This document shows, one piece after another, positions 32,029 through 35,050 of a DNA stretch of 64,000 nt (its first letter is position 1; every line of letters starts with the position of its first letter). The stretch comes from an uncultured Nitrospiraceae bacterium. GTDB lineage: Bacteria > Nitrospirota > Thermodesulfovibrionia > Thermodesulfovibrionales > Dissulfurispiraceae. The stretch covers positions 1-64,000 of the forward strand of contig CAVPIW010000005.1 of the NCBI GenBank assembly GCA_963705105.1. Reading direction: 5' to 3'. A program made the translations under genes and the position numbers. The notes under the pieces are model-generated. The model searched no databases. It had not been told where the DNA came from and saw only the letters and a list, made by a program, of their open reading frames with translations.

Positions 32029-32586
32029 TTATCTAACCTCGAACTGTTTGTTCTTTTCTGCGACTTCGAGTACTTCCTTCCAGCCCTTCCATTCCATGGC
32101 CCCAAGGTCGCTCTTGAGGGGATAATCCTTCCTGAGCGGATGCCCTTCCCAGTCATCGGGGAGAAGGATACGCCTGTGGTCGGGATGTCCCTTGAAGGTG
32201 ATGCCGAACATGTCAAAGCATTCCCGCTCGTGCCAGTTCGCCCCGGCATAGACGGGCACGACGCTGTCGATGGAACAGTCGTCTTCCGGCACCTCGGCCC
32301 GGACCCTCAGAAAGTGCCGGTGTTCGATCGAATACAACTGGTACGCGACCTCGAAACGGGGCTCCTTCTTGCCGAGGTAGTCGACTCCGCAGAGGTCGCG
32401 CAGGAGATCGAAAGAAAGGCTCGGCGTATCGTGGAGATACCGCACGATGTCCCTGATCCTCTTCTTGCCGACGATGACGGCGATCTGGCCGTTGTATTCC
32501 GCTATTTCCTTCACCTCGGAGGAAAATTGTTTCTGCAGTTGCTCAGCGATTTTTTTCGGATCCATACCTATCTCCACATGCTCCAT
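32029..32586 (-). CDS. nuoC: Complex I subunit C
   Basis: [20 protein letters not shown]. Confidence 0.96.
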
Positions 32587-33089
32587 TTGAAGTGTTCTTT
32601 TCTGATCTTTTCCTGGAGCTTCATCATCCCTTCAAGAAATGCCTCGGGTCTGGGAGGGCATCCCGGGATGAAAACATCCACGGGCATTATCAGGTCGACT
32701 CCCTGCACGGTGCTGTATGTGTCGAAGATGCCCCCGCTGCATGCACAGCTCCCCATGGCGACGACCCACCTCGGCTCCGGTATCTGGTCGTAGACCCTCC
32801 GGACGATGGGGGCCATTTTTTTCGTGAGAGTCCCTGCCAGGACGATCGCGTCGGACTGTCTCGGCGACGCCCTGTAGATGATGCCGAACCTGTCAAGATC
32901 ATAGTGTGACGATCCCGTCGTCATCATTTCAATGGCGCATCAAGCGAGGCCGAAGGTCAGCGGCCATAACGACGACAGCCTCCCCCAGTTGACGAGCTTG
33001 TCCACCGCCATGACGAAGACATTGGCGCCGGGGATGACCTTGACTCCCTCCTCGACTTCAACGAGAGCGGTTGTTCCGTCTATGATCAT
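32568..33089 (-). CDS. nuoB: Complex I subunit B, probable selenoprotein (TGA at 32942-32940, codon 50)
   Basis: AAGGAGGTG RBS, ATG 33089; frame reads ...[19 protein letters not shown]...MGSCA...PGCPPRPE. Confidence 0.9.
32905..32926 (-). promoter_or_regulatory. Putative bacterial SECIS hairpin
   Basis: UGACGA-CGGGA-UCGUCA; stem starts 17 nt and loop 23 nt after the UGA. Confidence 0.7.
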
Positions 33090-33773: not shown

Positions 33774-35050
33774 CTACGGCACGATATCTATATTTATCGT
33801 CATGTAGTCCAGGTAGATCTCGTCGTAATCGACGATACCGTTGACGTTTGTGTCGACGCCGAAATAGACGACATACGTCCCTGCGGACAGCCCTCCGGCT
33901 ATCTCGAGGACCTTGATCGGGGAACGGTTGAAGAGAGGCCCCTGATAGGCGGGGCGAATTGACTCCAGCGACGGGGTATAGTGCCACATATCGGGATGCA
34001 CGTAATAGAACCAGCCATAGGGCGCATAGGCCACAACCCACCAGTCGGCGTTTCTTCCCGACATCTCTCCCGGATCGAGGCTCACGGTCACAGAGAAGGA
34101 CTCACTCGACCTCAGGGTGATATGCGGATACGAGTTGTTTACCCTTATCGCAGGGGCTGCACGAGAGGGGCCGGACTGAAGGATCGTGCCTTCCTGCCCG
34201 ACGGTAACGAAGGTGTCATTGCCTGAGGCTATTCCGTAAAGGGTCGCCGTCGTCCCAGAGGGCCTCACGGTCCAGGAGGTCCCGTCGGAAGAGGTCGCGG
34301 TCGCCCCCCGCTCTCCCACTGCAATGAAATGTCCATCCTCAAAGATCACCCTTCTGAGGGGGCCAGCAGTTCCCGGATTCACCGACCTCCATTCCAGACC
34401 GTTCCGGGAGGTCAGGACCATGCCGCTCGGGGACGCCGCAACGAACAGCCCGTTGCCATAGGCAATCCCGGTGACCGGCCCGGGGGTGCCAAAGGGCGCC
34501 ACCGTCCACGAGACCCCATCGGAAGAGGTGAGGATTGTGTTTCCGGCTCCGGTAGCGATGAACGTGCCGTTTCCATAGGCGACTGCCTGAAGATTAGCGT
34601 CCGTGCCCGACAGCCTGTTCGCCCAGTTGACGCCGTTACCGGATGTCAGGATCGCCCCCCGCTCTCCCACGGCGACGAAGGCGCCATTGCCATAGGTGAT
34701 GCCGCGCAGAGCGGCGGATGTCCCTGAGAACGCCCCTGCCCAGGAAAGACCGTCCGAAGAGGTGATAATTGAGCCGCCGCTACCGACACTCACAAAAAGG
34801 CCGTTCCCGAATACCACATCGCTGAGATCGGCCTGGATGCTCCCGCTGTTCCTGACGGTCCAGGATAGCCCATCGCTCGATGTGAGGCTCACACCCCCGA
34901 TTCCCAGCGCGGTGAACAGGCCATTGCCGTACGCAACGGATTGAAGGTCATTCGTCGTTCCCGATGCTCTCCTCGTCCAGGTGACGAGGTCGGGGAGAGC
35001 CGATGATTGCCGGGACGGCGTGACAAGGCCGTCCGTATCATGTTCCTCAT
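33774..35050 (-). pseudogene. Beta-propeller-like repeat protein (YGNG..FVAVG..G.ILTS.DG.W) with damaged 5' end
   Basis: About six repeats; a full repeat lies in frame upstream of the called GTG 34892, but the nearest ATGs are out of frame. Confidence 0.55.

Follow-up and report, generated by a model that had tools for sequence, protein, structure and literature searches.

The nuoB gene in this window, a stretch of 64,000 nucleotides that corresponds to positions 1-64000 of contig C5 in a 4.23-Mb assembly (G000), is a genuine gene and, with a probability of about 0.9, encodes a full-length selenoprotein in which the UGA at codon 50 is decoded as selenocysteine. This reading is built on features that are present in the DNA of this organism and its relatives, namely the codon itself, its conservation, the selenocysteine machinery and the selection that acts on a hairpin behind the codon. 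The frame lies on the minus strand (33089-32568), opening with an AGGAGG Shine-Dalgarno sequence at 33104-33099 and an ATG at 33089-33087, and it contains a single in-frame TGA (32942-32940) before ending in a TAG at 32570-32568. When the TGA is read as U, one protein of 173 residues is obtained; the list of open reading frames made with translation table 11 splits the same frame into pieces of 49 and 119 amino acids. The read-through product matches PF01058 with 100.9 bits (cut-off 27) over positions 1-128 of the 128 in the profile, NF005012 with 244.6 bits (cut-off 116) and TIGR01957 with 235.4 bits (cut-off 142.7), and it is 68-80% identical to Cys-type orthologues over its whole length. 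An earlier note on this DNA, made from the sequence alone, had proposed a ribosome-binding site and an ATG at 33089 and a frame continuing through the UGA into the rest of nuoB, and these full-length family matches agree with that proposal.

The gene is flanked by nuoA and nuoC within an operon of eleven genes, nuoABCDHIJKLMN, which was delimited through Pfam matches and open reading frames at 33564-23497 on the minus strand, the start of nuoA being uncertain. All ten further nuo genes (A, C, D, H, I, J, K, L, M and N) are free of internal stops and each has a match to its Pfam family, as evidence that they are intact, which had also been the impression given by the first inspection of the sequence. 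No NuoF was found above the family cut-off anywhere in the genome and the operon does not include nuoEFG, so that this is an 11-subunit complex I without the NADH-oxidising module. With the genome being 99% complete and this gene the sole NuoB homologue detected in it, the only complex I of the organism would depend on selenium. Just upstream of the operon, on the same strand, there is a 372-aa ORF (33774-34892) with a repeated S-x-D-G-x-S/T-W motif that looks BNR/Asp-box-like by eye.

Aligned by phmmer with the PSST/NDUFS7 chains of solved complex I, residues U50 and C51 of the product fall on the tandem pair of the GLACCA motif, C115 on the cysteine of GSCA and C144 on that of PGCPP. The proposed selenocysteine (codon at 32940-32942, minus strand) is therefore aligned with the first tandem cysteine of cluster N2, while Cys51 (32937-32939), Cys115 (32745-32747), which is invariant in 70/70 rows, and Cys144 (32658-32660) correspond to the second, third and fourth N2 ligands. 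The best PDB alignments shown, which are to mitochondrial, Thermus and E. coli chains, have identities of 57-64% and E-values of 1e-57 to 1e-63. Judged from the alignment ranges, and assuming that there is no gap before residue 50, the counterpart of U50 is C45 in Thermus Nqo6 and C63 in E. coli NuoB, and on the same assumption it is C85 in Y. lipolytica NUKM, as numbered in PMC8042128. This C85 is placed by that source near the quinone-binding tyrosine of NDUFS2, and the ligation of N2 by tandem cysteines is described there as long linked to the high, pH-dependent potential of the cluster and to coupling (PMC8042128). Given this homology to the tandem cysteines in complex I structures, we infer that the selenocysteine would ligate N2 directly, through an Fe-Se bond. 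An extra cysteine, Cys117 (codon 32739-32741), is found two residues past the third N2 ligand, where the sequence reads GSCACSGG as opposed to the mitochondrial GSCANGGG, and it is present in 37/37 Cys forms and 25/33 TGA forms.

The genome encodes SelA (496 bits) and SelB (362.6 bits, above the curated cut-off), together with one tRNA-SeC(tca) that is the only tRNA with a stop-reading anticodon, and its SelD gene (C11:79300-80208) itself carries a TGA at the known Sec/Cys site, KAAG-U-AAKMG. The absence of selenocysteine machinery had been regarded beforehand as evidence that would speak against a selenoprotein, but selA, selB, selD and the tRNA-Sec are all in the genome. Three other genes of G000 likewise have one in-frame TGA with a hairpin behind it, namely selD, the formate dehydrogenase alpha subunit (fdhA, C5:161545-163548, loop GGUCU) and a second molybdopterin oxidoreductase (C12:54278-55129, loop GGACU). 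At the same time, TGA is not globally reassigned in this genome, being the commonest ordinary stop, which closes 1581 of the 2716 stop-to-stop frames of at least 300 codons and which ends both nuoK and nuoM. SelA was found in 59 of 61 relatives, the two without it being G006, with a Cys-type nuoB, and G011, with no close nuoB, and its co-occurrence with TGA-type nuoB therefore discriminates little.

In 61 genomes from the same family and order, the search gave 65 copies of nuoB with at least 68% identity to this one, and exactly one in-frame TGA is present in 23 of them, in 21 of the genomes. In a sample of 301 genomes from the phylum, TGA was found in 25 of the best 97 rows, with all 25 in the same class, and the next 53 rows, which come from other classes and rank ahead of 339 weaker ones, contained no TGA form. 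Seventy orthologues were fetched: the 30 best loci, to which 20 rows with TGA and 20 without a stop were added by hand. Of these, 33 have TGA at the codon and 37 have TGC or TGT, a split that does not represent a frequency given the hand-picked rows, and TAA or TAG never occurs there. The codon is number 50 throughout the 70, except in L040 (codon 49), whose N-terminus is one residue shorter, and its context across the fetched orthologues is FGLA-x-CAIEMM.

In a gene tree made from DNA with the codon and the hairpin columns removed, 14 changes between the Sec and Cys types are needed, at least 4 of which are forced by well-supported branches, and the type differs between pairs inside one genus. 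A TGA unique to this strain had also been foreseen as an objection, but TGA, TGC and TGT alternate across a whole class. By the public names of close Cys-type matches, the lineage belongs among Thermodesulfovibrionia/Nitrospirota. Two nuoB operons were observed in each of four genomes, with one TGA and one Cys type in G003 and G022, and two TGA types in G002 and G016. Sec/Cys isoenzyme pairs are known among hydrogenases, and the two-operon genomes G003 and G022 resemble these. The protein columns that differ between Sec and Cys forms are 16, 81, 95 and 111, which were considered as compensatory changes and rejected as such, the pattern looking phylogenetic instead. A distant NuoB paralogue in G008 that had been flagged with one TGA was also discarded, as it actually ends at a normal TGA stop.

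Behind the UGA, the minus strand can form a SECIS-like hairpin, UG(A)UGACGA [CGGGA] UCGUCACA, in which the core UGACGA/UCGUCA pairs 32923-32918 with 32912-32907 around an apical loop CGGGA (32917-32913), and in which the first stem base is the 17th nucleotide after the UGA. The core (32923-32907) extends past a bulged A to a U-A and a G-C pair, so that the whole element, as defined by folds and by the synonymous invariance of its stem codons, covers 32926-32905. This is the same hairpin, with the same stem, loop and spacing of 17 nt, that the earlier note had described. It is under selection specifically in the TGA forms: stem codons 57, 58, 60 and 61 are ACG ACG TCG TCA in 22/22 TGA forms with an identical peptide, compared with 0/19 invariant among the other degenerate codons from 43 to 71 in the same forms and with entropies of 1.4-1.9 bits for the stem codons in 17 Cys forms that share this peptide. 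The Gly codon that gives the last base of the loop also varies among the 22 TGA forms. At least 4 different stem sequences occur in this class at the same distance from the UGA, the further types being AUGAUGGCC...GCCAGUCA, AUGAUGGCCGUGGGCGCAUCA and GGCUGC[AGGU]GCAGCC, and lineages from metagenomes have stems of 7-8 bp at the same place, e.g., GGUUGCC[AGUUC]GGCAACC. A lack of any conserved hairpin, which had been foreseen as a possible objection to selenocysteine, is not what was found, given the fixed stem codons and the other stems in other lineages.

When a hairpin is counted only if it has at least 5 consecutive pairs and its loop is centred 24-32 nt away from the UGA (the strict rule), one is found in 25/33 TGA genes and 8/37 Cys genes from genomes, and in 48 of the 68 distinct TGA sequences from the metagenome matches listed. 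Measured from the U of the UGA, the nuoB loop occupies nt 25-29, compared with 23-28 nt in selD, fdhA and the third TGA gene of G000, and the apical loop starts 25 nt after that U in nuoB, 23 nt in selD, 24 nt in fdhA and 24 nt in the third gene. The same hairpin is also found in some Cys forms (L027, L034 and L153), which we read as recent conversions. A phylogeny-aware independent-pairs test of TGA against hairpin gave a p of about 1, with only 4 supported pairs and hence little power.

The stability of the hairpin alone is unremarkable. It is small, at -6.5 kcal/mol, and when each sequence was compared with 300 synonymous recodings of itself, the median fraction of recodings that were as stable was 0.13 for TGA forms vs. 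0.52 for Cys forms, with the fraction at or below 0.05 in 2/33 TGA forms and 3/37 Cys forms, and with type B at only 0.42. There was no Rfam SECIS match in 32850-33000, where only chance snoRNA and miRNA matches with E-values of 0.43 or worse were obtained (E up to 10). Bacterial SECIS elements are short and lineage-specific, and this null result therefore says little. In G000, CGGGAUCGU...AUGAUCUUG on the minus strand (32894-32917) can form an alternative hairpin of 9 bp with G-U pairs, which is not conserved in relatives; it is the minimum-energy fold of a longer stretch in this genome, where it competes with the conserved hairpin.

The occurrence of the codon beyond assembled genomes was followed in metagenomes with the pattern G-L-A-[TGA/TAA/TAG/TGG]-C-A-x-E-M, which gave matches from at least 118 stretches, with 80 loci examined. 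Among the 81 matches listed there were 78 with TGA, 3 with TGG and none with TAA or TAG, and that the stop is TGA every time, never TAA or TAG, disfavours gene decay. Among those listed, 73 with TGA are in NuoB frames that have no further stop in the 25 codons before it and the 40 codons after it, and these 73 have 26 different downstream decapeptides, which indicates that several lineages are involved. One class from the metagenomes, CAVEMMHAAA(A/S)RYDMDRFG (EMMH), consists of 12 distinct sequences of a mitochondrion- or proteobacterium-like NuoB/PSST with TGA, and is mostly without a hairpin next to the UGA (5/12 by the strict rule). TGG (Trp) was observed at the first tandem-Cys codon in L179, L207 and L243, with the frame of L179 being intact and encoding a mitochondrion-like NuoB/PSST.

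An isolated in-frame stop seen in just one assembly would ordinarily be put down to an error of sequencing or assembly, or else to a pseudogene in a decaying operon, but for this gene either is extremely unlikely. The same TGA is present in 33 independent assemblies and, among the metagenome matches listed, in 78, and it sits in an operon whose ten other genes are intact and in a protein whose similarity to Cys-type orthologues runs over the whole length. The assembled contigs of the sequencing run that is possibly the source of this DNA match exactly. Codon 50 is also crossed by contigs that come from two further studies and belong to close strains (X2, with 27 differences in 773 nt; X5, with 44 in 1375 nt), and none of the differences listed, which are all but 7, falls in 32860-32966, a range that includes the three positions of the codon. 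An RNA-library contig that belongs to a relative (X15 record 6, 395 nt with 13 differences) spans the UGA as well, and is a weak hint of transcription, with DNA carry-over being possible.

It is also very unlikely that the UGA terminates translation and that a second product starts from ATG-55/56, which would leave NuoB in two pieces, or as 119 residues without the tandem ligands. Two ATG codons do stand four codons past the UGA, and relatives are represented in public records by 119-aa calls, but codons 51-54, after the TGA and ahead of the first of these ATGs, encode CAIE in 33/33 TGA forms. These codons vary only synonymously (TGC/TGT, GCC/GCT and others, ATT/ATA/ATC and GAA/GAG), from which it follows that they are translated, against a stop and a restart at M55. 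The two methionines at 55-56 are equally conserved in the Cys forms, the stop is always TGA (TAA or TAG in 0/33 orthologues and 0/81 of the metagenome matches listed), and a NuoB without both tandem ligands could presumably not hold N2, judging from PMC8042128. A decoding of the UGA that is not, or not always, as selenocysteine is unlikely too, and would involve Cys carried on tRNA-Sec when selenium is scarce, or a near-cognate Trp or Cys, with an ordinary or defective N2 site as the outcome. Points in its favour are the TGG in 3 of the 81 metagenome matches listed, one of which is in an intact NuoB frame, and the Gly at position 50 in one public protein, P0037. It does not fit with a tRNA-SeC that is the only stop-reading tRNA in a genome with the full machinery, Sec-type SelD included, with a conserved SelB-type hairpin spaced as in selD and fdhA, or with a codon for which Cys is the sole alternative among the 70 fetched orthologues. 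Selenocysteine at an N2 ligand site, which the earlier note had proposed for the UGA in nuoB, is therefore the reading that the machinery, the alternation and the selection on the hairpin support.

The best 120 public proteins resembling the read-through product are all full length, with CC at the site in 119 and GC in one, and TGA forms are therefore absent from these records as whole proteins. P0037 is a 173-aa entry named NADH-quinone oxidoreductase subunit B [Nitrospirae bacterium], with Gly at 50, which may come from GGA in the DNA or from a TGA that was translated with a different code. The earlier note had expected the gene to be mis-called in a truncated form, and in the relative L017 this has happened: its 119-aa C-terminal ORF is identical to BCB97029.1, 'hypothetical protein [Dissulfurispira thermophila]', and the cluster of that entry contains many 119-aa entries named NuoB. 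Exact look-ups of the window's own 119-aa ORF and of that of L029 found neither in the protein collection. No publication or catalogue of a Sec-type NuoB was found in the literature searched, with the BSepDB website lying outside that search. There is no Nuo or NADH entry in the selenoproteome papers PMC12013277, PMC7539508 and PMC13326102, and the NuoB family is not on the selenoprotein lists consulted, that of PMC9312934 among them. Sec-type NuoB is very probably a recurrent, and apparently unpublished, variant in which a central respiratory subunit is made as a selenoprotein. Its protein family and the way it is decoded are both of already known kinds.

Bacterial selenoprotein genes follow the paradigm of fdhF, in which SelB decodes the UGA via a hairpin just 3' of it. 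The nuoB gene has in common with such genes, and with the fdhA and selD of its own genome, a UGA at a Cys site, a 3' hairpin with G in the loop and a full selABCD set, but it differs from them in its loop (CGGGA, vs. GGUCU in its own fdhA) and in having no Rfam model. When compared with Cys-type NuoB, Nqo6 and PSST (NDUFS7), the family models, the place in the operon between nuoA and nuoC and the ligands C51, C115 and C144 are the same, whereas the first tandem Cys is a UGA here, Cys117 is an addition and the operon is without nuoEFG. The [NiFeSe] hydrogenases are evolutionary relatives of the quinone module of complex I, in which selenocysteine is in the large subunit, the homologue of NuoD, and binds nickel. 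As in the present case, a selenocysteine stands where a cysteine would ligate a metal, the redox module has the same ancestry, and relatives include both Sec and Cys isoforms. The selenocysteine here, in contrast, is in the homologue of the small subunit, where it would bind a [4Fe-4S] cluster; NuoB does weakly match hydrogenase small-subunit models.

In complex I, cluster N2 comes last in the chain of electron carriers and passes electrons to quinone. As a ribosome nears UGA-50, the hairpin that begins 17 nt downstream would recruit SelB with GTP and Sec-tRNA(Sec), and selenocysteine would be inserted at the codon. The product would then have U50, C51, C115 and C144, instead of four cysteines, around the [4Fe-4S] cluster, with a selenolate taking the place of the thiolate of the first, strained tandem Cys and with selenium on one corner of N2. 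The binding of SelB, the insertion, the Fe-Se ligation and any effect on the potential of the cluster are what we infer. It may be speculated that the longer bond relieves strain in the backbone, that the lower pKa alters the redox-linked protonation of N2, and that the potential is shifted to suit a low-potential quinone. More boldly, the neighbouring Sec and Cys might in addition act as a selenenylsulfide switch.

Taking these points together, it is probable that a selenolate-ligated N2 is a widespread natural alternative in the complex I of anaerobes, one that arose or reverted at least four times in a single class of Nitrospirota and that is present in several other metagenome lineages too, that it makes the only complex I of organisms such as this one selenium-dependent, and that selenium at the strained first tandem position would retune the potential or the protonation of the cluster. 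The selenoproteome otherwise consists mainly of formate dehydrogenases, hydrogenases and thiol oxidoreductases, and if the reading is true, a core respiratory enzyme would be added to it, along with a rare case of selenocysteine ligating an iron-sulfur cluster. A natural exchange of Sec for Cys at an N2 ligand would also offer a ready-made probe of the cluster, as selenium is visible to X-ray absorption and shifts EPR and redox properties, and the Sec and Cys versions are available side by side in close relatives and sometimes in one genome. Additionally, annotation pipelines truncate the gene, so that these anaerobes may be credited in error with a broken complex I when their metabolism is reconstructed.
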